Shown: positions 2,862 through 31,298 of the stretch, in pieces
Layout: the number at the start of each line of letters is the position of its first letter
How positions within the stretch are numbered: position 1 is the first letter of the stretch
Assembly (NCBI GenBank): GCA_029245145.1
Contig: JAQWPY010000005.1
Span: 11,990-75,989, forward strand
DNA length: 64,000 nt
Direction of reading: 5' to 3'
Origin: Pirellulales bacterium
GTDB taxonomy: Bacteria; Planctomycetota; Planctomycetia; Pirellulales; UBA7805
Program-made: the position numbers and the translations under genes
Notes under the pieces: generated by a model
Seen by the model: the letters and a program-made list of their open reading frames with translations, nothing else
What the model was told of the DNA's origin: nothing
Databases searched by the model: none

Positions 2862-3016
2862 TCGGCAAGGGAGTTAGGCTTTAGTACCTCTCCAGCATAA
2901 CCTCCACGAAAAGCCGAAACTAGGTGGGCTTTTGCCGGTCTGCCCGATCAACACACACGCGACAGAACCGCTGTGACCGCCACGCACCGAAATGGAGTCA
3001 ACCGGGGAACATTGCT

Positions 3017-3784
3017 ATGCAGTTACAAGATCGCTCTTTTCTGATCACAGGCGGAGCTTCAGGCCTCGGGGCCGCTTGCTGTCGGGAACTGGTGACCGCA
3101 GGCGCGCGGGTGACGATTGCCGACGTGGACGAGAATGCGGCCGAAAACCTGCTCGCCGAGTGTCCCACCGGCGTTCGATTTATCCGGACTGACGTCTGCG
3201 ATCCGGAACAGATGAAAGCGGCGGTAGACTCCTGTGTCGAGTGGCACGGCCCCCTGCATGGAGTGATCACCTGCGCCGGTATCCTTCGCGGAGCGCGCGT
3301 GGTCGGACGCCAATCACCCCACGACCTGGAACTTTTTCGGCAAGTTGTCGATGTCAACTTGATCGGAACATTCAACGCAGTACGACTCGGCGCCACGGCA
3401 ATCGCAGATTCACCCACCGAGGAGGAGAGTGAGCGGGGGATCATTTTAATGACCGCCTCCATCGCTGCATGGGAAGGACAGATCGGTCAAGCGGCTTACT
3501 CAGCAGCAAAGGGAGGTGTCGCGAGCATGACGTTGCCCATGGCCCGCGAATTAGGTCAACATGGCATTCGCGTCGTTTCGATCGCACCCGGCATTTTCGA
3601 CACGCCCATGATGCAAGCCGTGAGCCCTGAGCTTCGAAAATCTCTGGAAGCTCAAATCCCCTTTCCCCCGCGGTTTGGGCGACCCGATGAATTTGCACAA
3701 CTGGCAAGGCAAATCATTGAAAACCGGATGATCAATGGCGCCGTACTCCGTCTGGACGCCGGAATCCGGATGCAGGCCAAGTAG
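3017..3784 (+). CDS. SDR family NAD(P)-dependent oxidoreductase (3-hydroxyacyl-CoA dehydrogenase type-2-like)
   Basis: ATG at 3017 gives MQLQDRSFLITGGASGLG (TGxxxGxG Rossmann motif). The catalytic YSAAK motif is present. Track ORF 2924..3784 starts at an upstream GTG. Confidence 0.85.
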   Translation: MQLQDRSFLITGGASGLGAACCRELVTAGARVTIADVDENAAENLLAECPTGVRFIRTDVCDPEQMKAAVDSCVEWHGPLHGVITCAGILRGARVVGRQSPHDLELFRQVVDVNLIGTFNAVRLGATAIADSPTEEESERGIILMTASIAAWEGQIGQAAYSAAKGGVASMTLPMARELGQHGIRVVSIAPGIFDTPMMQAVSPELRKSLEAQIPFPPRFGRPDEFAQLARQIIENRMINGAVLRLDAGIRMQAK

Positions 3785-3815: not shown

Positions 3816-4862
3816 TCAGAACCACCCTCGCTCTGAATACCAGTCGACCGTTTCCTGGATTCGCTGCTCGAGTGACGCAGCAGGCTTGAAACCAAGTTCT
3901 TGCTTAATGCGATCCGCAGAGCAAATCCAACTTCCCGCTACGCCTTCCCTCACCTTATCGAGAGAAAAGACGCTGGCACGCCCCCGCAAGCGGGCCAACA
4001 CACTCGCCATCCCTCCTGCCGTGCAAGCGATCATATCGGGCACGGGTAACTTGACCACGTGATCTTTGCCCATCGCCTTGCCGATCATATCACCGAGTTG
4101 ACTGTATCTTGGCGTTGCATCGTCGCAGACAAAGTAGCATCCCTGTCGAAAGCTCTCCTCAGTCGCATCGCGCGCATCGACGCGCGTTCCCCGATCGGCG
4201 ACCAGCATAATCGCGTCTGCCAAATCTTTTGCATGGACCAACGACATTTTCCGACGATGCCGCATCCCGGGGACCGGGTGGATACCAAATCGCTTGACAG
4301 GTCGAAACAAGTAAAAGCCGCTGCGGTCGCCGCCACCAAACACAAAGGGTGGTCGCAGAATTGTTGTCGGCACGCGATCAGCAAAAGATGCGGCAGCCAA
4401 CTCCCCAGAACGTTTACTCCGACCGTAGTGGGAAACCGGTCTCACCTCATCCGATTCGCTGCGAGTCTGCCCATCGATTGCCGTCCCTGCAGCCGCAATG
4501 CTTGAGACAAAAATCAAGATCGGGGGCGAGGTGATCTCGGCGCACGCCCTGGCGAGAGACTCGGTCCCTGCACCGTTTATTTCCTCAAACGTTTGACTCG
4601 ACAATGCCGTCATCAAGCCGCCCAGATGAATCACCAAATCTACATTTCGGACGGCATGTCCCAGCGCTTGAGGATCCGATAAATCACCGAGAAATCGCTC
4701 CACCCCGGGTTGCTGCAGCGTTTCACTTCGCTCCAGATCGCGCACAAGGCAGCGAACCTGCATGCCCGCTTGCAACAGATTTTCCAAGACATAGCTGCCG
4801 AGAAAACCGGTGGCTCCGGTCAAGAGTGCTCTCTGCATACGATTCGGCCCCTCCCGGTGCAT
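3816..4862 (-). CDS. NAD-dependent epimerase/dehydratase family protein
   Basis: N-terminal LLTGATGFLGSYV Rossmann motif and a YGRSK catalytic Tyr-x3-Lys. The start could be the second Met at 4838. Confidence 0.8.
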   Translation of the reverse strand: MHREGPNRMQRALLTGATGFLGSYVLENLLQAGMQVRCLVRDLERSETLQQPGVERFLGDLSDPQALGHAVRNVDLVIHLGGLMTALSSQTFEEINGAGTESLARACAEITSPPILIFVSSIAAAGTAIDGQTRSESDEVRPVSHYGRSKRSGELAAASFADRVPTTILRPPFVFGGGDRSGFYLFRPVKRFGIHPVPGMRHRRKMSLVHAKDLADAIMLVADRGTRVDARDATEESFRQGCYFVCDDATPRYSQLGDMIGKAMGKDHVVKLPVPDMIACTAGGMASVLARLRGRASVFSLDKVREGVAGSWICSADRIKQELGFKPAASLEQRIQETVDWYSERGWF

Positions 4863-5078
4863 CCGTTTGGTCGTGCCTTCATCTGCTGAAGGCCACAGTT
4901 GATGAAATCTTAAGATAGCCGCACACCACGAAGATGGCTATCCTTGATGACCGGTGGCAATCCCGATAGGATGCCTGCTTCGTAAACTTCCGAGTGCGCG
5001 ACCGGCCGAGCCCCCGATTGGCCGCTGCAAAAACCCGAGTACCGCGTTCATATCGTTCTGCGACGAAAGTTCCTACAG

Positions 5079-6341
5079 ATGACTCATCGAGAGGTGGTTC
5101 TCACCGGGTTCGGCATCGTCAGTCCGATCGGCATTGGCAAGGAAGCGTGCTGGAATTCCCTCGTGGAGCAACGGAGTGGCGCCGACTGGGTGCAGTCCTT
5201 CGATGCGACCACCGCCCGCTGCAGGATCGCAGCCGAAATTTTTGATTTCGAGCCCAAACAGTACATTCGCCCGCGAAAAAGCATGAAGGTGATGTCGCGC
5301 GACATCCAACTTGCTTTTGCGGCAGCGGAAATGGCGATGAACGATACCGGGTTGACCCCGGAACAAGGCGACCCTGAGAGAAAGGGTGTCATTTTCGGAA
5401 GCGATTTAATCTATACCGAAGTTGAATCGGTCAGTGATGGGTATCGCAGTTGCCTGCGTGAAGGGAATTTTGACTATGCACTCTGGGGGACGGAAGCTCT
5501 GGCCAACATGTCCCCTCTCTGGCTCTTAAAATATCTCCCGAATATGCCCGCCTGCCATATCGGGATTGCTCAAGATGCTCGTGGGGCAAATAATTCGATA
5601 ACCGTCGGCGATACGTCGAGCCTTCAGGCAGTGATCGAAGCTGCCCACGCTATCCAGCGCAATCAGCTTGATGTTGCGATTACGGGAGGAACCGGTTCAC
5701 CCCTTAACCCCACCGTTTATGACTTTCGCGGACGCGGCAGGTTTACCCAAAATGAAACGGATCCGACAAAAGCGTGTCGACCGTTCGACCGTGATCGAGA
5801 TGGCACTTTCCATGGCGAAGGTGCGGCAGCCTTCATCCTGGAGAGTCGGGAGCACGCAGAAAACCGCGGAGCGGACATTTTGGCAACCGTTGGCGGTGGT
5901 TGTAGCAGGTTTGCACCGAATTCAACGAATGACCGCAGCATCGCGATTCGAAACAGCATTGAGGGGGCCCTTCAAGAAGCCGGCCTGAATTCGGAAGAGA
6001 TCGATCACGTGAACGCCCACGGCATCGCGCTGAGGGAAGAAGACCAAGTCGAGGCCGAAGCCATCCACTCGCTTTTGGGCGATGTTCCAGTCATCGCACC
6101 CAAAAGTTATTTTGGCAATATCGGCGCCGGGGGTGGCGCCGTGGAGATGGCAGTGAGTTTACTCGCACTGCAGGAAGGAACGCTTCCGGTCTCCCTCAAC
6201 TACGAAAACCCTGATCCTCTCTGCCCGGTCAACGTGGTGAGCGGTTCGCCACGACCGATCGAAAAAAATGGAGTCCTGCTCCTGAATCAGGGCCGCGATG
6301 GACAGGCAGTCGCGGTTATCCTGCGGGCAAAAGAAAAGTAA
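5079..6341 (+). CDS. beta-ketoacyl-ACP synthase (FabF/KAS II)-like protein with substituted catalytic triad
   Basis: 420 aa with a thiolase-fold KS architecture: VVLTGFGIVSPIG, DVAITGG, VNAHG, GAVE. The position of the active-site Cys reads TVGDTSS (Asp codon GAT at 5610..5612). Confidence 0.85.
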   Translation: MTHREVVLTGFGIVSPIGIGKEACWNSLVEQRSGADWVQSFDATTARCRIAAEIFDFEPKQYIRPRKSMKVMSRDIQLAFAAAEMAMNDTGLTPEQGDPERKGVIFGSDLIYTEVESVSDGYRSCLREGNFDYALWGTEALANMSPLWLLKYLPNMPACHIGIAQDARGANNSITVGDTSSLQAVIEAAHAIQRNQLDVAITGGTGSPLNPTVYDFRGRGRFTQNETDPTKACRPFDRDRDGTFHGEGAAAFILESREHAENRGADILATVGGGCSRFAPNSTNDRSIAIRNSIEGALQEAGLNSEEIDHVNAHGIALREEDQVEAEAIHSLLGDVPVIAPKSYFGNIGAGGGAVEMAVSLLALQEGTLPVSLNYENPDPLCPVNVVSGSPRPIEKNGVLLLNQGRDGQAVAVILRAKEK

Positions 6342-6353
6342 ACGCAGCGCCCG

Positions 6354-9278
6354 TCACTGGTACCGCCGCATGCTCGCGGGGGAATCGCTCGGGCGACTCA
6401 CCTGAGCCGAGTAAGGCGCAGGGATTGCTGGGTTCGGAGTTGCCGAATCGCTTGAGACAGACGTAACGTTAGCTTGCTGATTCTTGACTTTACGATCCAA
6501 ACCGCGCGTAAACAGCTTGCCGAGCGGTCCGGTAAGCAGGGCGGGTAAAAAGATGAGGTCGCCGACCAGAGCAGCGGCCAACAGAAACATCATCAGGTAT
6601 CCAAAACGCTGTGTCGGGGTGAAGGTACTCAGGGCAAAGACGCCCAACCCCAAGCCACCGATCAGGGTGGTTTCAATCATAGCCGTTGCACATCGCTCAT
6701 AAGCCATGCGCACGGCCCCCCGTCGATTCAGTCCGCTGATAATTCCTCGACGGAACCAGGTGAGGAAGTGCACCGTATCGTCTACCGCGACCCCCATTGC
6801 CACGCTTGCCGTCATCATCGTGCCAATATCAATGAGCGACCCGATCCACCCCATGAATCCGAAAATGACGACAATCGGAAAAACATTGGGGATCATGGAA
6901 AGCAGGCCCGCGGTAGGCGATCGCAGGATGGCCATCATCAAGACGCAGATCAGCACGAAAGCCAAAAGAATACTGTTGACCAGTCCCACCAGCAGCGTCC
7001 GCTGGGCTTTGTAAACGAGTGGAACGACGCCCGTGTAGACCGGCCAGATTCCACCGACCTGTTCTTCTTCACGACTCGTCTGGAGCGGATCAAAAGCACG
7101 TGCATCGATGATGTTATTGGTATGTCGCTTGATGAAATCATACGCAACCGCAGGATGATCATCGACAAAGTAGACCAAGTCAAATTTATCGAAGTAATCG
7201 GCCGCTTTCGCATGTTTTTCTTCGGCACCAATGTACCGCTTCGGCGCCTCACCAGCCGCCGCCCGTTTCACCGGCGTTACTCTCACACCGGCCACACGGA
7301 GTAATTCGCTGAGCGTTTGCATCATCTCATCGCGAGGTTGGCGATCGCGTAGAGATGATTCTGTTTCCTCATGGGATGGTTCTGATTTGGAATCGCCGGG
7401 CATTCCCACCAGACAAACGCGTTTGCCTCGTAGCGTTTCCCCTGATTTTGCGATGGAGGAAACAATCCTTTCACGTTCGCGATACGCCGCCAGGAGCGGC
7501 ATCACGGAGCGACGAATTTCTTCAACGAATTGGCCGTAATCGACATCGCTTAAAGCCGGCAGACGGGCGCTGACGCGAAACAGCTCCTCGCTGCCATCCT
7601 CACGGAAATAATCCTCCTCCAAAAATTCCTGTCGATGATTTTGAAGCGCGGCATTGTAGCCGGAACGTTCCGCGAAAACTCCTAAGCTATTTGCCTGCTC
7701 TGGCAGTTCGGGTGCAAACGTGACCATGGAGAGGGCGCGGCCCACATCGGGAAGCTGTTCGATCCGGTGTTGAACTCGTTCCACCATCTCCATCCGCTCG
7801 AGCATTGAAAGTCGATAGTGACCTTCATCCGACAAAATCGGATCAGAACCTTGTCGCATCCTGGAGTGATCCATTCGCAACACCACTTCCATGGGGACGA
7901 GGTTACCCAGGTTCTCCTCGAGCCATGTGTAATTTCGAATGATGTTAGCGCCCGGATCAAAAAGCTTCATCAGCTGAACGGTCGTCTGGGTTTTTGCTAA
8001 TCCCACGCCCAGGACCACCAACATGATGCCGCAAAATATCGAGACCACTGCGTGGCGGTGGATGATCATATCGCCCATGCCAAGGAGCAAGCGAGAAAAG
8101 GGGGTGCTGTGAACCGCGCCCTGGGATGATGTGGTCTTCTTTTTCTTCCGCGGAGGCCACAATTGCAGCAGGGTCGGCAGAAGTACAAACAGCACGACGA
8201 GAGTAAAAAGCACTCCGTACGCCGCGTAAACTCCAAACTTACGGATCGGTATGACTTCGCTGGTAATCAGAGATCCTAAACCGAGCGCCGTGGTGACCGC
8301 CGCCAACGTGCAAGGAAGCCAACCGGCCCGCAGAGCGCGGCCAGGCGCACCCTCGAGACCCGATTCCTCCACCTCATCCTGGTAGTAATTCACTAAGTGA
8401 ATCGCGCCGGAGAGCCCCAGGACATAAACCAGCGAGGGTAACACCAGCAGCACAGCATCCATTAATCCGCCTGTGACATAAACAATCATCAGGCTGCATG
8501 CCGCACCGTAGACGCCACAGAAAAAGACCATGGCGGTCACCCGTTTACTGCGGAAACAGTAGTAGGAGAGACCGAGCCCCACCAACGCCGAAAGCCCGAC
8601 GAGTCGCATGAGCGTAATCTCACCCTCGTCGTCGATCGCCACATTATCGACCGGGGGACCGCCAATCCGCAGTTCCGATTTATCGAGGCCACACGAATCG
8701 GCGGCTATCTTGAACAGAAGCCCGTCTTCGCGACCCATCAAAATCTGTGTCAACGGCCAAGAATTGCCAAGCCCCGCACGTAAGTTATCTTCTGCCTCAT
8801 TGGTGAGCGTTGCCACCAGACAGGTTGTTTCGCCGTCCGGGCCCACCAGCGCACCTTGCATCCTCGCGAGCGCCTCTTTCTTTTTAAGTTTTAAGCTTCC
8901 CTTCGGATCGGTCATTTGCGCGAGTACTTCCGGCCCGGTAATCACGCTCTTGAAGAATTTCCGCTGAGGAAGATTCGCCGTTTCAGGCGTCATGGGAGGG
9001 ACCAGCGCATCGGCCAATTGTGGCACGCGCGGATCATCAAGCGTGCAACCGGGCCAACTGATCACCACAAACTGTTCGCCCAAAAACTGGTCGCGGAACC
9101 AGTCCAGTTCACGCGTCTCTTCAAACCCATCCGGCAGCCATGCCTTCACATCGTTCTTGTTATTCTCCAGTGCGATCCGCGCGCCGCGCATCACGATCGG
9201 CAGTAGAAAGATTGCCGCGAGTAGGAGCAAAAATGCGTTGCGTGTAAAAAATGCGGGTCTCTGCATTACCATACCCAC
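6354..9278 (-). CDS. MMPL/RND superfamily transporter permease
   Basis: 974 aa. It has an N-terminal TM helix, a large extracytoplasmic domain, a TM bundle, a second large loop and a second TM bundle. Alternative starts at 9272 or 9266 overlap the upstream stop (TAATG). Confidence 0.8.
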   Translation of the reverse strand: MGMVMQRPAFFTRNAFLLLLAAIFLLPIVMRGARIALENNKNDVKAWLPDGFEETRELDWFRDQFLGEQFVVISWPGCTLDDPRVPQLADALVPPMTPETANLPQRKFFKSVITGPEVLAQMTDPKGSLKLKKKEALARMQGALVGPDGETTCLVATLTNEAEDNLRAGLGNSWPLTQILMGREDGLLFKIAADSCGLDKSELRIGGPPVDNVAIDDEGEITLMRLVGLSALVGLGLSYYCFRSKRVTAMVFFCGVYGAACSLMIVYVTGGLMDAVLLVLPSLVYVLGLSGAIHLVNYYQDEVEESGLEGAPGRALRAGWLPCTLAAVTTALGLGSLITSEVIPIRKFGVYAAYGVLFTLVVLFVLLPTLLQLWPPRKKKKTTSSQGAVHSTPFSRLLLGMGDMIIHRHAVVSIFCGIMLVVLGVGLAKTQTTVQLMKLFDPGANIIRNYTWLEENLGNLVPMEVVLRMDHSRMRQGSDPILSDEGHYRLSMLERMEMVERVQHRIEQLPDVGRALSMVTFAPELPEQANSLGVFAERSGYNAALQNHRQEFLEEDYFREDGSEELFRVSARLPALSDVDYGQFVEEIRRSVMPLLAAYRERERIVSSIAKSGETLRGKRVCLVGMPGDSKSEPSHEETESSLRDRQPRDEMMQTLSELLRVAGVRVTPVKRAAAGEAPKRYIGAEEKHAKAADYFDKFDLVYFVDDHPAVAYDFIKRHTNNIIDARAFDPLQTSREEEQVGGIWPVYTGVVPLVYKAQRTLLVGLVNSILLAFVLICVLMMAILRSPTAGLLSMIPNVFPIVVIFGFMGWIGSLIDIGTMMTASVAMGVAVDDTVHFLTWFRRGIISGLNRRGAVRMAYERCATAMIETTLIGGLGLGVFALSTFTPTQRFGYLMMFLLAAALVGDLIFLPALLTGPLGKLFTRGLDRKVKNQQANVTSVSSDSATPNPAIPAPYSAQVSRPSDSPASMRRYQ

Positions 9279-10873: not shown

Positions 10874-11169
10874 AGCCGTCGTTGCGCGCACGCGGCATTG
10901 CCACAACTTGATCAGGGGTGCGGCTTCAACGGGGTCATCGACCAAATTCCTTGGCTCTCGCTAGGAATAATCGATAAAATCAGAAAAATCGGCACAGATT
11001 GCCTATTTGTTACAAATCACCGAAAAAAGGGCCTCCCACTTCGCGTAAGGTCCTTCATGCATCAGAGGGTCGCCGGGTATGGTGAGTTGTCGCTCCCCGG
11101 CCCTGGGCCTTATGCTGTCGTTACTTGCATTTTCCTCCTCGATTCTCTCTCCCCTTTGAAAGCGTTGCC

Positions 11170-13323
11170 ATGCCGTTTGATCGCTATATTCCCTGCCCCT
11201 GTGGAAGTGGAAAGAAACTCAAATTCTGCTGCGAGGATTTGCATGTGGAACTCGAGGCGATCCAAAAAATGCTGGAGGGGGAACAGCGACTCGCATGCCT
11301 GGAATACCTTGAAAAGGCACTTGAGTCGCAACCGGATCGTGCTTGTCTGCTGGCAATTAAAGCCCTCCTCCAGTCGGAATTACAGCAAACCGAAGCACTC
11401 GAGGCAACGCTTGCACATTTCGAGGAAACACATCCCGGCAACCCGATCGCAGCGGCCGAGCGGGCGATTCAAATGGCAGAGTCGGGCGATCCGCATCTCG
11501 CGGTGATCAAATTGCAGGAGGCACTCAAAATTGTCGATGCGCAGATGCCGGTTCGAGTCTATGAAGCGATCGGCATTCTCGGGCGATCACTGTTGGCAGT
11601 CGGAAATGTGCTTGCGGCACGAGCACATCTCCTGCTCCAAGCCTCGATCGGCGGTTCAGAGGATCCTCGGGCCATGTCGCTGCTCGCCCCTTTGGTACGC
11701 TCTCCGGAAATTCCCCTGCTTTTGAGAGATGAGCAACCGCTTGTGGAACCCCCCGAGGGGACCGACCATCGCGATGCAATTCAGCAGGCCCTCCGCATCG
11801 CAGCGACCGGCAAGTGGCTTGAGGCGGCCGATCAATTGGAGGAACTCGCGCAGCAGAAACAAAATCCCGCGGTTCTCCGAAATTTGGCCATTCTGCGCGG
11901 TTGGCTCGCCCAAGTCGATGGGGCCACAGACGTCTGGAAAAAATATGCCTGCCTCGAGGACATTCCTTCGGACGATGCGATTGAAGCTGAAGCGCTCACC
12001 CAACTCATCGATCCCAACCTTGCGTTTGATACGGTACCACTCGTCTGTCAAACACTCGAACTTCTTGACGCCGATGGAGTCGCTGCCCTGCTCTCCGCAA
12101 ATCGTCAAACAGAAATTCTCGGAGAACCACAGCCAAGCCCACTGCAACAGGAGGGACAACCCTCACCCCGTCTCGTCTTCTTACTCCTCGACCGAGAGAT
12201 GCCTGCCTCCGGGGCCGGAATCGCCCTTGAGGATCTGCCCTGCGTCCTGGGCCAGGGCTACCTTTTCGGAAGAGAAACCGATCGAAGCGCCCGCGTGGAA
12301 TTCGTTTTTTATCAGGATGCGCAAAGTGATGACGCGCTCAAACAACTCAACCAGGTGACCGATAACTCGCTGCAAAAAAACGATGAGACCACCTTGAGTG
12401 AGGTTCCGGATATCGAGCGAAAAATGGGAAAGCAGACCCGTGTTCCTCCCGACACGCCGGTCGCCGATCGCGAAAGACTTGCAGGGGAAAAGCAGCAGGA
12501 GGCGCTCTTTACAATCTGGCCCGATCTACCACAACCGGTACTCGACGGCAAAACCCCTCGCGAGGTCGCGCAAGCAGAGCATACCAGCTTCGAACTCCAA
12601 GCGGCCATCCTCGTATTGGAAACCTCGAACAATTCGGCTGAGGATACTATCGACTTCAATCAGTTGCGAAACGCCTTGGGTGTCCCGCTCCCTGAGCCGA
12701 TTTCTTCGGAAAGCGTCGATCCGGAGCGTTTACCGATGGTCCGCATGAACCGGGTCGCGGTGGAGGAAATGTCAGATGCGTGGTTACTCCAAGCATATCG
12801 CCGGGCTGCAATGCTTGCCGCCACAAATGTCCTCGGTCGCCTCGCAAGTGAAGTTGTACAACGTGAAAGTCTCGACGGGCAAGTTGACAAAGCGGAAGCT
12901 TGCGGACTGATGGCTGGTGTTTCACCGACAATTCAACAAGCGATCGAATGGTTACACCAGGCGAGGGAATGGGCGGCAAAAGAAAAAACTTCGCCGGCCC
13001 GCTGGTTGCTCGCCGAGTTGGACCTCCATCTACGGGGTGGCGACTCCGCAGCCGCACAAGGCCTACTCCAGGAAATACAGAGCCAATATATTCGTGAACC
13101 GGGCATTGCTCAGGCACTCGTCCAACTCCTGGCGAAATACGGGATTATCGATCCGCGTGCAGCGGTCGCTGGAGGAGTGCCGCCGGGGGCGGCAGCCGCG
13201 AGTGGGCCGGAAAGCGTCTCAGCAGCGCCTTCAGCACAGGAAGAGGAACAAAAAATCTGGACTCCCGACGGCAGCGCCTCTGGACCGCAGAAAAAATCTG
13301 CCATCTGGACTCCGGATGACTAA
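11170..13323 (+). CDS. SEC-C motif-containing protein with helical-repeat body
   Basis: ATG at 11170 gives MPFDRYIPCPCGSGKKLKFCCEDL, the SEC-C metal-binding motif. The body is a long Leu/Ala-rich helical region. The C-terminal tail has two IWTPD repeats. Confidence 0.7.
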   Translation: MPFDRYIPCPCGSGKKLKFCCEDLHVELEAIQKMLEGEQRLACLEYLEKALESQPDRACLLAIKALLQSELQQTEALEATLAHFEETHPGNPIAAAERAIQMAESGDPHLAVIKLQEALKIVDAQMPVRVYEAIGILGRSLLAVGNVLAARAHLLLQASIGGSEDPRAMSLLAPLVRSPEIPLLLRDEQPLVEPPEGTDHRDAIQQALRIAATGKWLEAADQLEELAQQKQNPAVLRNLAILRGWLAQVDGATDVWKKYACLEDIPSDDAIEAEALTQLIDPNLAFDTVPLVCQTLELLDADGVAALLSANRQTEILGEPQPSPLQQEGQPSPRLVFLLLDREMPASGAGIALEDLPCVLGQGYLFGRETDRSARVEFVFYQDAQSDDALKQLNQVTDNSLQKNDETTLSEVPDIERKMGKQTRVPPDTPVADRERLAGEKQQEALFTIWPDLPQPVLDGKTPREVAQAEHTSFELQAAILVLETSNNSAEDTIDFNQLRNALGVPLPEPISSESVDPERLPMVRMNRVAVEEMSDAWLLQAYRRAAMLAATNVLGRLASEVVQRESLDGQVDKAEACGLMAGVSPTIQQAIEWLHQAREWAAKEKTSPARWLLAELDLHLRGGDSAAAQGLLQEIQSQYIREPGIAQALVQLLAKYGIIDPRAAVAGGVPPGAAAASGPESVSAAPSAQEEEQKIWTPDGSASGPQKKSAIWTPDD

Positions 13324-13403: not shown

Positions 13404-14504
13404 ATGACTGATCCACACGACGACTTGCGCTGGATGCAACGTGCTCTGGCACTCGCCCGGCAAGGAGAGGGACGCGTGGAACCGAATCCGATGGTTGGCT
13501 GTGTGATCACACAGGCAAATCGAGTTGTGGGAGAGGGATTCCACACCGCTTTCGGCGCCGATCATGCGGAAATCGAGGCACTGCGTCAGGCCGGTGAGCA
13601 AGCCGCAGGCGGCTGCCTTTACGTCAACCTTGAACCATGTTGTCATCAAGGAAAAACCGGTCCTTGCACCCAGGCAATCATCGAAGCACAAATCGGTCGA
13701 GTCGTCGTTGCGCTCAAAGATCCGTTTCCGCAGGTTGCAGGCAAAGGCCTCTCTGTATTGGAATCCCATGGCATAGAAATTGTGACTGGCGTCGCGAGAG
13801 CTGAAGCAGAGGAATTAAATGCGCCTTATTTACATGCCATCGAGACGGGACGCCCATGGGTCATCGCAAAGTGGGCAATGACACTGGATGGAAAAATTGC
13901 CACCTCTACAGGCGAAAGCCAATGGATTTCGACCGCTACTTCCCGCGCAAAAGTTCACCAACTCCGCGGACGCGTCGATGGGATTGTCATCGGCCGGCAA
14001 ACCGCACAACAAGACGATCCGCTGCTGACAGCGCGACCGCCCGGTCCGCGCACCGCGACACGGATCGTGCTGGATTCAAATGCACAGATCGCCTGCGATT
14101 CGCAACTCGTTCGTTCCGCAAAGGAGGTGCCCCTCCTCGTCGTCACCGGCGAGCATGCACCGGAAGAAGCCACATCGCGGCTCGCAGATGCCGGTTGCGA
14201 AATTTTAAAGATCGACCAGCAATCCCCGAACGAACAGTTGCGCTGTCTCCTCGAAATACTCGGCAAACGCAAAATGACAAATCTTCTTGTGGAAGGGGGA
14301 GGTACCGTCCTGGGCAGCTTACTCGATGCAAGCTTGATCGATGAAGTACATGCGTTTATTGCGCCGCTGATCGTCGGCGGGACGGGCCCTGGTCCAGTCA
14401 TGGGAAACGGAATCAAACAACTCGATATGGCACGGCGTCTCCCGCAACTCAAGGTCGAGCAAATCGACGGGGATCTCTACCTTTGGGGCCGTTTTGCACG
14501 GTAA
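13404..14504 (+). CDS. ribD: bifunctional diaminohydroxyphosphoribosylaminopyrimidine deaminase / 5-amino-6-(5-phosphoribosylamino)uracil reductase
   Basis: Deaminase zinc motifs HAEIEAL and EPCCHQGKTGPC, plus a C-terminal reductase domain (KWAMTLDGKIA, LLVEGGG). Confidence 0.9.
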   Translation: MTDPHDDLRWMQRALALARQGEGRVEPNPMVGCVITQANRVVGEGFHTAFGADHAEIEALRQAGEQAAGGCLYVNLEPCCHQGKTGPCTQAIIEAQIGRVVVALKDPFPQVAGKGLSVLESHGIEIVTGVARAEAEELNAPYLHAIETGRPWVIAKWAMTLDGKIATSTGESQWISTATSRAKVHQLRGRVDGIVIGRQTAQQDDPLLTARPPGPRTATRIVLDSNAQIACDSQLVRSAKEVPLLVVTGEHAPEEATSRLADAGCEILKIDQQSPNEQLRCLLEILGKRKMTNLLVEGGGTVLGSLLDASLIDEVHAFIAPLIVGGTGPGPVMGNGIKQLDMARRLPQLKVEQIDGDLYLWGRFAR

Positions 14505-27505: not shown

Positions 27506-30457
27506 TTGAGTGACGAGACGATGCTCTGGGAAGTCGATATCTATCCTGCGTCCGGGCAGGCTGACCGAGAAGCGAGTGAGGTGGTTGCCGATGCGGCCGA
27601 TCTCGGATTTTCCGGTTTAGAAATCGCGACGAGCCGTGGCTATCTTTTGGAGGGCGATCTTCATCCCGAAGACGTTCGCAGGATTGCCGATCAACTGCTG
27701 GTCGATCCGGTCGTGGAACGCACAGTCGTTGCCCCAGTGGGGTCAGCCGAACTGAATCAACCACCACGAAAAGATTTGCATCCGCTTCACGTTCTCCCTA
27801 AACCGGGTGTGATGGATCCCGTCGCCCAAAGCGCGATGAGTGCGATTGCCGATTTACAGATCGATGTCAGCGCAATTCGAACCCTCAAGAAGTACTGGCT
27901 CCCCGAGTTGGAAGATCGGGCAATCGAAAGGCTGGCGAGGAAAATTTTGGCGAACGATGCAATCGAACAAGTGGTATCGGGCCCACTTCATTTCAAACAA
28001 CTTCAACTGGGAACTTCGTACGATTTTGATCTGAAAACGGTCTCGATTCGCGACCTCGATACGGCTCAACTGGATCAACTCAGCCGTAGCGGCCAACTCT
28101 ACTTGCAGACGGCAGAGATGAAAACGATCCGCGATTACTACCGCAGCATTGATCGCGATCCGACCGACATCGAATTGGAAACCCTGGCCCAAACGTGGAG
28201 CGAACACTGCAGTCATAAGACGCTCGCCGGACGAATCGCCTATGAGGGACCGATCGATCGAAAAGGATCTCACGGTCAGCGGCAGTTTGAGAATATGCTC
28301 AAAGAAACAATCTTTGCAGCCACCGTCGCCATTCGTAACAAACTCCAAAATGAAGACTGGTGCGTCAGCGTTTTTGAGGACAATGCAGGGATCGTTCGCT
28401 TCGATGATGACCACAACGTGGTATTCAAAGTAGAGACCCACAATCATCCCTCCGCTCTGGAGCCCTATGGGGGTGCCAATACTGGAATCGGTGGCGTCAT
28501 CCGCGATCCTCTCGGCACGGGACTCGGAGCACGTCCGGTCTGCAACACGGACGTCTTTTGTTTTGCGCGACCTGACTATCCTGCAGACTCGCTTCCCCAG
28601 GGCGTACTCCACCCGCGCCGCGTGATGAAAGGGGTTGTTTCGGGCGTCAGAGATTATGGTAACCGCATGGGTATCCCCACCGTGAACGGAGCGCTCTATT
28701 TCGATGATCGTTATTTGGGCAATCCACTTGTCTACTGTGGGACCGTGGGAATTTTGCCCCGGGACAAATCGTTTGGATCACCCCAGCCGGGCGACCATAT
28801 TGTGGCGATCGGTGGTCGCACCGGAAGAGACGGGATCCACGGTGCGACCTTCAGTTCGGCAGAACTCACCGAAGAAAGCGAATCACTCTCCGGCGGGGCC
28901 GTTCAAATCGGTAACGCGATCACAGAAAAAATGGTGCTCGATGTCGTGCTGGTCGCGCGGGATCGCGGCCTTTACAGCGCAATTACCGATTGCGGTGCCG
29001 GAGGATTCTCCAGTGCCGTCGGCGAAATGGGTGAAAAGATCGGAGCCGAGGTCTATTTGGAAAGGGCGCCCGTCAAATACGAAGGGCTCTCCTACACGGA
29101 AATTTGGATTTCCGAAGCGCAGGAGCGAATGGTTCTTTCGGTTCCCGATAAGCACTGGGCGGCCCTCCACGACCTCTGTCGCTCTGAGGATGTCGAGGCC
29201 ACCATTATCGGTAAGTTTGTGCCGACCGGAAAACTCTCGCTCCATTACCACGATTCGGTGGTGGGTGAGTTACCGATGGATTTTCTGCACGATGGCCGCC
29301 CGCCAGTGATCCGCCAGGCCCAATACCAACCGCCAGTTGAGCAGCCCTTAACGCCTTCCGGAAATCAGCTGGACTGTGGTGAATCGCTTCTTGCCATTCT
29401 TAGCTCACTGAATGTTGCAAGCAAAGAATGGGTCATCCGTCAGTACGACCATGAAGTTCAGGCGGGCAGTGCGGTCAAACCGCTTGTGGGAGTCGCCAAT
29501 GACGGGCCATCCGATGCGGCCGTCGTGCGCCCACTCCTTTCTTCGCGACGGGGAATTGTCGTCGCCTGTGGCATGAACCCCCATTACGGCGACCTTGATA
29601 CGTACCACATGGCTGCCAGTGGAATTGACGAGGCCGTGAGAAATTGTGTGGCCGTGGGTGCAGATCCGTCGCAAATCGCAATCCTCGATAACTTTTGTTG
29701 GGGCGATTGCGAGAAGGCCGAAACACTCGGTGCATTGGTCCGTGCCGCACTCGCCTGCTACGACATGGCCGTAGCGCTCGATACGCCGTTCATCAGCGGC
29801 AAAGACAGTTTGAATAATGAGTTCAGTTTCATGATGGATGGCGAAAAACGATCGATTGCCATTCCCTCCACCCTGTTGATCAGTGCGATGGGGCAAGTCG
29901 AATCGGTAGATCAATGCGTGACCATGGACTTCAAGAGCCCCGGAAACCGAATCTACCAAGTGGGGGTGACCCGGAATGAATTGGGGGGATCACACTTTGC
30001 TCTCGTCAACCAACTCTCCGGCGGTCGCGTTCCACAGGTCGACCCCAAAATGGCGAAGACCACGTTTCACGCCCTCCACCAGGCAATTCGTCAAGGTATG
30101 GTTCGCAGTTGCCACGACCTGAGCGAAGGTGGGCTCGCGGTCGCGATTGCGGAGATGGCCTTCGCCGGCGACTGGGGTGCTGAGGTTGAACTGGCAGGCG
30201 AACAACACGAAATCGACACCGAAATCGAAGCACTGTTCAGTGAGTCGAACAGCCGATTTCTCTGCGAAGTACCCGATAACGTTGCCCCCCGATTCGAAGC
30301 ACTGTTTGAAAACTCAGAACCGACGATCACGTTCGCACATATCGGCACGGTGACGGAGGGCAAGAATTTGGTAATTCGAGGCGAGAACGACAGACCGCTC
30401 GTCGATCTTTCGCTGCGGCAGTTAAAAGAAGCTTGGAAGAAACCGCTCGATTGGTAG
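27506..30457 (+). CDS. purL: phosphoribosylformylglycinamidine synthase subunit PurL with N-terminal PurS-like modules
   Basis: [15 protein letters not shown] and the duplicated AIR-synthase-like fold. Two PurS-like segments of about 170 aa in total precede the PurL core. The track start is TTG, and an ATG at 27521 is more likely. Confidence 0.9.
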
Positions 30458-30506: not shown

Positions 30507-31298
30507 ATGAGCCGCCCCCACGCGTTAATCCTAAGAGCGCCCGGAACGAACTGTGACCGGGAGACAGCCTTTGCCTTGCAAACGGCTGGTGCCGAAACTC
30601 GGATCCTTCACGTCAATCGCGTACTCGAAAACCAAAAGGATTTAGACGAGTTCCAAATCCTTTGTCTTCCCGGCGGCTTCAGCTATGGCGACGACGTGGC
30701 GGCAGGTCGCATCCTCGGCAATCAAATCCGCCATCACCTTGCCGAAGCAATGTATAAGTTCCGTGATGCCGGAAAATTAATTCTGGGCATTTGCAACGGG
30801 TTTCAAGTACTCATTAAATCGGGATTACTCATCGGGTCACAGGATGTTTCCGAGTCCAATAATATGGCAGGAACGCTGACCTGGAACGATTCAGGAAAAT
30901 TCGAAGACCGTTGGGTCCACCTGGAAACCTGCGGTAACAAATCTCCCTTTCTTGAGGGAATTGAAAAGATGTATTTGCCCGTGGCCCATGCGGAGGGCAA
31001 ATTTGTCGTCAAGTCACCCGACCGACTCGATGCCCTTGCCACCGAGGGGCAGCTCGTGCTTCGCTATTGCGATCCATTTAAAAGCTCCGAGGCGCCGGTA
31101 ACATTTCCGGAGAACCCGAATGGCTCGGTCGAAGCGACAGCCGGTATTTGCGATCACACGGGTCGTGTCCTCGGCTTGATGCCACATCCGGAGCGCTATA
31201 TCGACCGCACGCAGCACCCGCGATGGACCCGCGGGGAGGGGGGCGCGGAGGGTGATGGCTTGGCAATGTTCAAGAATGCCGTCTCTTACTTCAGCTAA
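30507..31298 (+). CDS. purQ: phosphoribosylformylglycinamidine synthase glutaminase subunit
   Basis: Class I glutamine amidotransferase: LPGGFSYGD, nucleophile GICNGFQ, and MPHPER with the catalytic His. Confidence 0.9.

Follow-up and report, generated by a model that had tools for sequence, protein, structure and literature searches.

A conserved FabF-derived protein of Planctomycetota without the ketosynthase nucleophile and without a neighbouring ketosynthase

The window analysed here is a 64-kb stretch of DNA (64,000 nucleotides) from contig JAQWPY010000005.1 of a Pirellulales bacterium; the gene under study, denoted KSx, encodes a ketosynthase (KS)-like protein. KSx occupies 5079..6341 on the forward strand as an intact open reading frame (ORF) with an ATG start, and its FabF-like product of 420 amino acids (aa) contains the blocks SITVGDTSS, VNAHGIAL, KSYFGNIGAGGG, DVAITGG and GAVE. 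Both domains of the thiolase-fold ketosynthases are present by Pfam (ketoacyl-synt N, 3e-34; C, 8e-17), and the NCBIfam equivalog model for FabF, TIGR03150, gives 271.2 bits, under its curated cut-off of 493.75. An AlphaFold2 model of the monomer, built with 66 family sequences, has a mean predicted local distance difference test (pLDDT) score of 93, and its best Foldseek matches are FabF structures, with TM-scores of 0.89-0.92. KSx is a conserved FabF-derived protein of the Planctomycetota in which the ketosynthase fold is kept. The main residues and segments are as follows.

5514..5558, forward strand: residues P146-H160, PLWLLKYLPNMPACH, aligned with FabF 131-145
5610..5612, forward strand: Asp178, codon GAT, at the site of the nucleophilic Cys163 of FabF
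6018..6020, forward strand: His314, codon CAC, at the site of FabF His303 (His1); kept in KSx, variable across the family
6102..6104, forward strand: Lys342, at the site of FabF Lys335; an invariant structural lysine
6117..6119, forward strand: Asn347, codon AAT, at the site of FabF His340 (His2)
6291..6311, forward strand: residues 405-411, GRDGQAV, where FabF has its gating loop FGFGGTN; without the gating/oxyanion Phe400
4863..5078, no strand: intergenic region of 216 bp that separates KSx from the divergently oriented epimerase gene; presumed to hold the promoter

A reading made from the DNA alone (the sequence-only reading) had claimed that the Cys-His-His triad of FabF is replaced by Asp-His-Asn, and that this is unlikely to be an artefact of alignment. 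HMMER alignments to the FabF proteins of B. subtilis (4ls5) and T. thermophilus (1j3n) place Asp178, His314 and Asn347 at the Cys, His1 and His2 positions, and a MAFFT alignment with E. coli FabF agrees (C163, H303 and H340); no alignment puts a Cys at the nucleophile position. The motifs and codons had been read correctly (GAT at 5610-5612, AAT at 6117-6119), as had the two base changes that separate Cys from Asp (TGY to GAY). The numbering of the E. coli sequence used yields the expected C163, H303, K335, H340 and F400. The Cys that would accept the acyl chain is missing from KSx, as are His2 and the gating Phe.

A search through 5.8 billion proteins yielded 7,214 homologues; the 120 ranked highest have 50-95% identity to KSx and come from Pirellulales, Thermoguttaceae and other Planctomycetota. 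At the Cys163 site these 120 carry Glu in 82 cases, Asp in 36, and Ser and Gly in one each, with no Cys and no Gln; the residue is acidic in 118/120, and Glu and Asp interchange among proteins that are 50-95% identical. The D-H-N variant is thus conserved in orthologues as a large planctomycete family, with Glu commoner than Asp at the first position. Both histidine sites drift: the first is His in 81 homologues, Asn in 18 and Asp in 16, and the second is Asn in 96, Asp in 6 and His in 5, with Tyr and Ser also occurring. The buried K335/D311/E314/E349 network of FabF, on the other hand, is unchanged (119-120/120), with Lys at the position of Lys342 in 119/120 and its partners Asp322, Glu325 and Glu356 present in all 120. 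Thr305 of FabF is lost in favour of a hydrophobic residue, the Phe400 position is occupied by Thr, Met, Val, Ile or Asp, and the GFGG gate has become a variable loop. As for docking of the acyl carrier protein (ACP), the positions of FabF K65 and R68 are both invariant Lys in the family, and four other docking residues (K69, R127, K128 and R206) are gone. The most conserved stretch of the family is P146-H160, in which 13 of 15 positions are conserved at 95% or more and W148 in 120/120. By analogy with KS dimers, this segment would adjoin the helix-loop-helix motif that lines the acyl tunnel of the other subunit.

The same picture emerges when 1.84 billion cluster representatives (50% identity) are searched exhaustively with HMMER: Asp or Glu occupies the Cys site in 89 of the 120 full-length sequences among the best 150 matches, and Cys returns only in matches of about 265 bits or less. 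In a genome scan that took a single representative of each GTDB species, KSx relatives turned up at no fewer than 503 loci; the 80 of these that were listed belong to Planctomycetota, save one metagenome-assembled genome labelled Nealsonbacteria. The ratio of nonsynonymous to synonymous substitution rates (dN/dS) between KSx and a 95%-identical orthologue (locus L087) is 0.067, as computed for this one pair from an ungapped codon alignment. KSx is under strong purifying selection.

Two other candidate sites were considered and rejected. Cys125 and Cys159, invariant in the family, might have provided a substitute nucleophile or a Cys/His metal site; in the Asp/Glu clade at large both are replaced by Ser or Ala, so that there is no hidden alternative nucleophile. 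Gln409 was considered as a family-specific catalytic residue, but catalytic relatives hold the same Gln within GFGGQN.

The free interchange of Asp and Glu, the drift of His1 and His2 and the variable F400 position, set beside the invariant K335, D311, E314 and E349, argue for a structural rather than a catalytic site. The same combination, with the second His and the Phe lost, points to a non-condensing pseudo-enzyme rather than to a new catalyst or a decarboxylase. KSx very probably does not condense, and it is likely that its role is non-catalytic, of whatever kind. We infer that a carboxylate at the helix N-terminus can stand in structurally for the charge of the thiolate.

Acidic substitutions of this type have been known since 2009. 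Two FabF paralogues of Rhodopirellula baltica without Cys163 were tabulated by Rattray et al. 2009 (PMC2649909, Table 2): RB4527 (NP_866153), with Glu163/His298/Lys328/Asn333/Glu342, and RB3714 (NP_865682), with Asp163 and the pattern Asp/His/Ile/His; that paper gave them no function and described no neighbourhood. KSx shows the pattern of RB4527 with Asp in place of Glu (Asp178/His314/Lys342/Asn347/Glu356), and both come from non-anammox planctomycetes; their putative orthology rests on this residue pattern and on taxonomy. The RB3714 pattern corresponds to a DHIH/DHMH subgroup that was also seen in this analysis (P0194, P0179). A literature search on RB4527 found no later work, and searches on Cys-to-Asp ketosynthases and on orphan chain-length factors (CLFs) in Planctomycetota gave nothing further.

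A CLF-like role of a dead planctomycete FabF paralogue was shown in 2026 for another subfamily. The anammox protein amxFabFmut is inactive alone and crystallises on its own as a homodimer; with the adjacent amxFabF2 it forms a KS/CLF-like heterodimer (PDB 9s5h) that decarboxylates malonyl-ACP, an activity that sits on the intact-triad subunit (Granatino et al. 2026, bioRxiv 10.64898/2026.05.19.726425). In this heterodimer Phe135, Thr138 and Val139 of the dead subunit, equivalent to the P146-H160 segment, line the acyl tunnel of the catalytic subunit (Granatino et al. 2026). Both amxFabFmut and KSx are FabF paralogues of planctomycetes in which the triad is dead and a Lys (Lys328 in amxFabFmut) is retained; both have a FabF-like fold, that of amxFabFmut being closest to B. 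subtilis FabF. The two differ at the Cys site, which is Val or Thr in amxFabFmut and acidic (Asp or Glu) in the KSx family, and in gene context: amxFabFmut is encoded immediately upstream of its partner amxFabF2 in an ACP/FabZ/radical-SAM cluster, a context that KSx lacks. The similarity of KSx to amxFabFmut (E about 1e-38) is weaker than to ordinary FabF (E about 1e-53).

The CLFs of type II polyketide synthases (PKSs), also termed KS-beta (actinorhodin CLF, 1TQY_B; ishigamide Iga12), share with KSx a KS fold without the nucleophilic Cys. These classical CLFs act in a dimer and have a conserved Gln at the Cys site, in contrast with the Asp of KSx; their genes adjoin, and are translationally coupled to, those of KS-alpha, whereas KSx is an orphan. 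KSx scores 162-185 bits against KS-alpha/FabF and 131 bits against CLF. FabF/KAS II enzymes (TIGR03150) resemble KSx in fold (TM-score about 0.9), in length, in sequence (about 30% identity) and in the Lys335/Asp311/Glu314/Glu349 network; KSx differs from them in having no Cys-His-His triad, no GFGG/Phe400 gate, no Thr305 and no fab operon.

Some more distant relatives do occur with a ketosynthase. P0171, an Asp-type protein 39% identical to KSx, is encoded directly upstream of a Cys-His-Lys-His KS at locus L086 (7102-13577, JGI metagenome 3300033141). Ahead of this pair the cluster has genes for a FabA/ApeI-like dehydratase, a B12-radical-SAM enzyme, an ACP and a second FabA-like dehydratase, and after the pair come those for an alpha/beta-hydrolase, a GH3 adenylating enzyme and methyltransferases. 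This cluster resembles the anammox 'cluster I' and the Desulfotalea-type KS pair cluster. Four database proteins of 812-878 aa consist of an N-terminal Cys-His-His KS fused to a degenerate KS. In a rough neighbour-joining tree, a distance tree with long branches that is indicative only, the Asp/Glu clade including KSx is nested in a radiation of degenerate KS-like proteins, with P0171-like forms more basal and canonical KS at the base. A catalytic Cys-His-Lys-His KS, P0201 (L089:2018-3307, GCA_038231495.1), is among the closest to KSx, with 37% identity and a shared W148; on its contig of 4.9 kb it stands alone beside clpS, outside a fab operon. P0201 could represent a class of 'unusual but active' paralogues able to partner KSx. 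P0238, another of the nearest catalytic relatives, likewise lies on a short contig.

The genes around KSx were counted over 84 non-redundant loci. The first four features below lie in the window and the last three at related loci.

2924..3784, forward strand: FabG-like short-chain dehydrogenase (SDR); nearby in 9/84 loci
3816..4862, reverse strand: NAD-dependent epimerase/3-beta-hydroxysteroid dehydrogenase-type reductase; within 4 kb upstream in 19/84 loci
6354..9278, reverse strand: MMPL/RND (HAE3, HpnN-like) transporter, converging on KSx with 12 bp between the two genes; directly downstream in 9/84 loci, including the distant L082
9266..10945, reverse strand: putative outer-membrane beta-barrel with a weak BBP7 match (E 1.6e-4, under the Pfam cut-off); after the MMPL gene in 8/84 loci
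At most 1.7 kb upstream of KSx, same strand: GNAT protein of about 375 aa, the commonest neighbour (33/84 loci); examples (protein P0306) at L001:8581-9705, L082:7428-8567 and L085:7388-8521
Directly downstream of KSx, same strand: MMR_HSR1 GTPase of about 617 aa; 18/84 loci
Near KSx: FA_desaturase-family membrane protein; 14/84 loci

The epimerase, SDR and MMPL-plus-barrel neighbours had all been named rightly in the sequence-only reading, but the neighbourhood carries more weight than was given to it there: the epimerase and MMPL genes are part of a recurrent set with the tandem-GNAT and desaturase genes. All four neighbours occur together at L082, in the order epimerase (-), GNAT (+), desaturase (+), KSx (+), MMPL (-), although the KSx protein there is only 40% identical to the query and has an Asp/His/Met/His pattern; L085, with a KSx 43% identical, has GNAT (+), desaturase (+), KSx (+). 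Since these two loci keep the neighbours, the association extends over the Asp/Glu clade as a whole. In the window, as in the loci closest to it (L002-L004), genes for the epimerase, SDR, MMPL and barrel are retained, and those for the GNAT and GTPase are absent near KSx. In L003 and L004 a desaturase gene lies 5.8 kb upstream, a spot whose equivalent falls just past the left edge of the window.

The barrel gene overlaps the start of the MMPL gene by 13 bp, so the two are probably co-transcribed, and this overlap together with their joint occurrence in 8 loci suggests a dedicated pair for export of lipid from the inner to the outer membrane. The epimerase resembles HpnA, OleD and thioester reductases, in each case under the curated cut-off; assignment of the epimerase and MMPL proteins to the OleABCD or hopanoid (HpnA/HpnN) pathways was not adopted, as the scores are far under those cut-offs. 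The GNAT protein P0306 has 66-73% identity over the best 120 of 7,984 matches. Its predicted structure is that of a tandem GNAT, which Foldseek matches to MAB_4324, the clavulanate tandem GNAT, glucosamine N-acetyltransferase and MshD at TM-scores of 0.55-0.67; a search of PDB sequences gave a sole match, the CurA GNAT, which is not significant (E = 0.47). Taken together, the recurrent neighbours suggest an uncharacterised lipid module.

Two known pathways were considered for this module and set aside. The bacterial ceramide pathway (GNAT ceramide synthase plus epimerase-type reductase) is an unsupported analogy: the literature search brought no usable result, and Pfam scans of the neighbours (73 upstream, 73 downstream) showed no gene for serine palmitoyltransferase. 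Biosynthesis of stieleriacine (N-acyl tyrosine) was rejected as the published clusters hold NAS, ThiF and nitroreductase genes, unlike the neighbours of KSx.

Some variation in the neighbouring genes was also observed. Tandem copies of the GNAT gene occur in L018; ORFs of about 770-900 aa lie upstream in L016, L025, L030, L033 and L035, and proteins of 602-646 aa are found among the GNAT matches (P0307-P0311). The MMR_HSR1-type GTPase (L001:11482-13335 and 17 further loci) has a hydrophobic, Gly/Ala-rich C-terminal region and lies 15-300 bp downstream of KSx in most cases; it occurs mainly in Thermoguttaceae-like genomes and is not in the window.

We read KSx, with moderate confidence, as a non-condensing, CLF-like structural subunit; that it forms a heterodimer with a KS encoded elsewhere, by analogy with the anammox pair, is put forward more tentatively. 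KSx would act as a non-catalytic subunit, like a chain-length factor or amxFabFmut, and would dimerise through the invariant PLWxLKYLPNMxACH segment, its likeliest partner being a catalytic KS from elsewhere in the genome. Within such a dimer the acyl tunnel may be shaped or gated to suit a specialised acyl chain. As judged from the neighbourhood only, the chain may feed a lipid module of tandem-GNAT acyltransferase, membrane desaturase/hydroxylase, epimerase-type reductase, and MMPL exporter with outer-membrane barrel, in which the neighbouring enzymes would modify the chain and the MMPL/barrel pair would export it. We count in support that the most conserved stretch corresponds to one facing the tunnel of the partner subunit in KS dimers, that amxFabFmut provides a precedent in the same phylum, and that relatives are found beside a KS (P0171) or as KS-degenerate KS fusions. 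The earlier suggestion of a non-condensing partner, either a CLF or a decarboxylase, stands in its first half, CLF-like proteins being the closest analogues; its second half is disfavoured by the lost His340, Thr305 and Phe400 and by the anionic site.

Several observations weigh against the CLF-like reading. The gene of a known CLF-type subunit nearly always adjoins that of its KS. As had been claimed, no catalytic KS lies next door: tblastn with KSx found no second KS in the 64-kb window and none within ±10 kb in 81 related loci. A tblastn search of those loci with E. coli AcpP gave two weak matches only, with no ACP gene seen beside KSx, and the nearest gene on each side of KSx, scanned with Pfam at 73 loci (73 + 73 neighbours), was in no case a KS or ACP gene. 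The acidic residue that nearly all homologues have at the Cys site could serve some other function, and it differs both from the Gln of type II PKS CLFs and from the Val or Thr of amxFabFmut. Finally, with the neighbourhood kept in just 10-40% of loci, a link to a lipid module is suggested rather than proven. On the side of a partner encoded elsewhere, planctomycete pathway genes have been reported to be dispersed rather than clustered (PMC12479983).

In the main rival explanation KSx is non-catalytic and stands alone, paired with no ketosynthase; as a homodimer, or in complex with the tandem GNAT, it would bind acyl-ACP or lipid or present it to the GNAT, desaturase and reductase before export by MMPL. 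The missing KS at the loci checked fits this proposal, as do the frequency of the tandem GNAT among the neighbours (33/84), the GNAT-desaturase-KSx trios in lineages that are only 40-43% identical, and the homodimer that amxFabFmut alone forms in crystals. The docking surface speaks both ways, with the K65 and R68 positions invariant as Lys but K69, R127, K128 and R206 lost. Moreover, the window and its closest relatives have no GNAT gene near KSx, the structural matches of the GNAT are moderate (TM-scores of 0.55-0.67) and mostly to users of acetyl-CoA, and we know of no other case in which a protein with the KS fold works for a GNAT enzyme. On balance we regard this explanation as somewhat unlikely. 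A broader proposal, which we consider unlikely as well and a little more so, is that KSx may found a class of orphan pseudo-ketosynthases detached from KS partners, serving the GNAT, desaturase, reductase and MMPL/barrel proteins either as an acyl-ACP-binding or -presenting subunit or as a carboxylate-based acyl-transfer or hydrolase enzyme, in a pathway that would make and export an envelope lipid common to Pirellulales.

KSx might instead be an active enzyme with a new chemistry, in which the Asp or Glu carboxylate would serve as general base for acyl-ACP thioester hydrolysis, for acyl transfer or for a non-canonical Claisen-type reaction. An acidic residue in 118/120 homologues, an invariant Lys342 and network, an active-site region that is strongly conserved overall and strong purifying selection would all be expected of such an enzyme. 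It is hard to reconcile, however, with the interchange of Asp and Glu, which are one methylene apart, among close orthologues, with the variation of both His1 and His2, or with the unconserved oxyanion/gating Phe loop, and a carboxylate at the helix N-terminus may merely replace the thiolate charge, as suggested above; we consider it quite unlikely.

A role as a KSQ- or CLF-type malonyl-ACP decarboxylase, priming fatty-acid or polyketide synthesis, is very unlikely. Cys-less ketosynthases often decarboxylate, and the anammox heterodimer does so with malonyl-ACP, but in that pair the activity belongs to the intact-triad subunit. In work from 1999 by Witkowski et al., decarboxylation reportedly depends on the two His residues and is promoted when a neutral Gln takes the place of the Cys; KSQ-type malonyl decarboxylases have this Gln with both His. 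KSx, with Asp178 and Asn347 and a variable His303 site in its family, differs on these points; Thr305 and Phe400 are lost, and a negative charge lies where malonyl would bind.

A decaying pseudogene or an alignment artefact, which the lost triad alone might suggest and which Cys-bearing orthologues would have favoured, has a negligible chance: the intact ORF, the dN/dS of 0.067 and the substitutions shared across homologues (0/120 with Cys, 118/120 with Glu or Asp) exclude decay and mark a conserved variant, independent alignments agree, the model has a pLDDT of 93, and Cys125 and Cys159 are unconserved in the wider clade.

New here are the size and conservation of the Asp/Glu clade, its standing as an orphan family, the way in which the 'catalytic' residues drift while an interface segment is conserved, and the recurrent GNAT/desaturase/reductase/MMPL neighbourhood. 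Known inactive KS paralogues are partners encoded beside a catalytic KS (the type II PKS CLFs and, since 2026, amxFabFmut). The KSx family stands apart from these: it is an orphan, occurs widely in Pirellulales and related groups, evolves under strong purifying selection and has a conserved acidic residue at the nucleophile site. If KSx does pair with a KS encoded elsewhere, control of acyl chains of the KS/CLF type would reach, without gene clustering, into the core lipid metabolism of a whole phylum; if it pairs with no KS, it would represent a new use of the KS fold. Either way, KSx together with the tandem GNAT, desaturase, reductase, MMPL and barrel proteins marks a candidate pathway for an uncharacterised planctomycete membrane lipid, and several members of the group are culturable and genetically tractable.

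The rest of the window is of housekeeping type (hisG, hisI, ribD, thiF, uvrA, ligA, tyrA, purL, purQ and a GHMP kinase). A protein of 732 aa encoded at 11125-13323 on the forward strand has an N-terminal SEC-C motif and no other Pfam match; its homologues lie within 10 kb of KSx in 9 loci, which may be mere synteny, as for ribD at 13404-14504. Further downstream, the PurL protein of 983 aa encoded at 27506-30457 on the forward strand, followed by purQ at 30507-31298, has a weak PurS-like match at residues 95-156, which suggests a PurS-PurL fusion.

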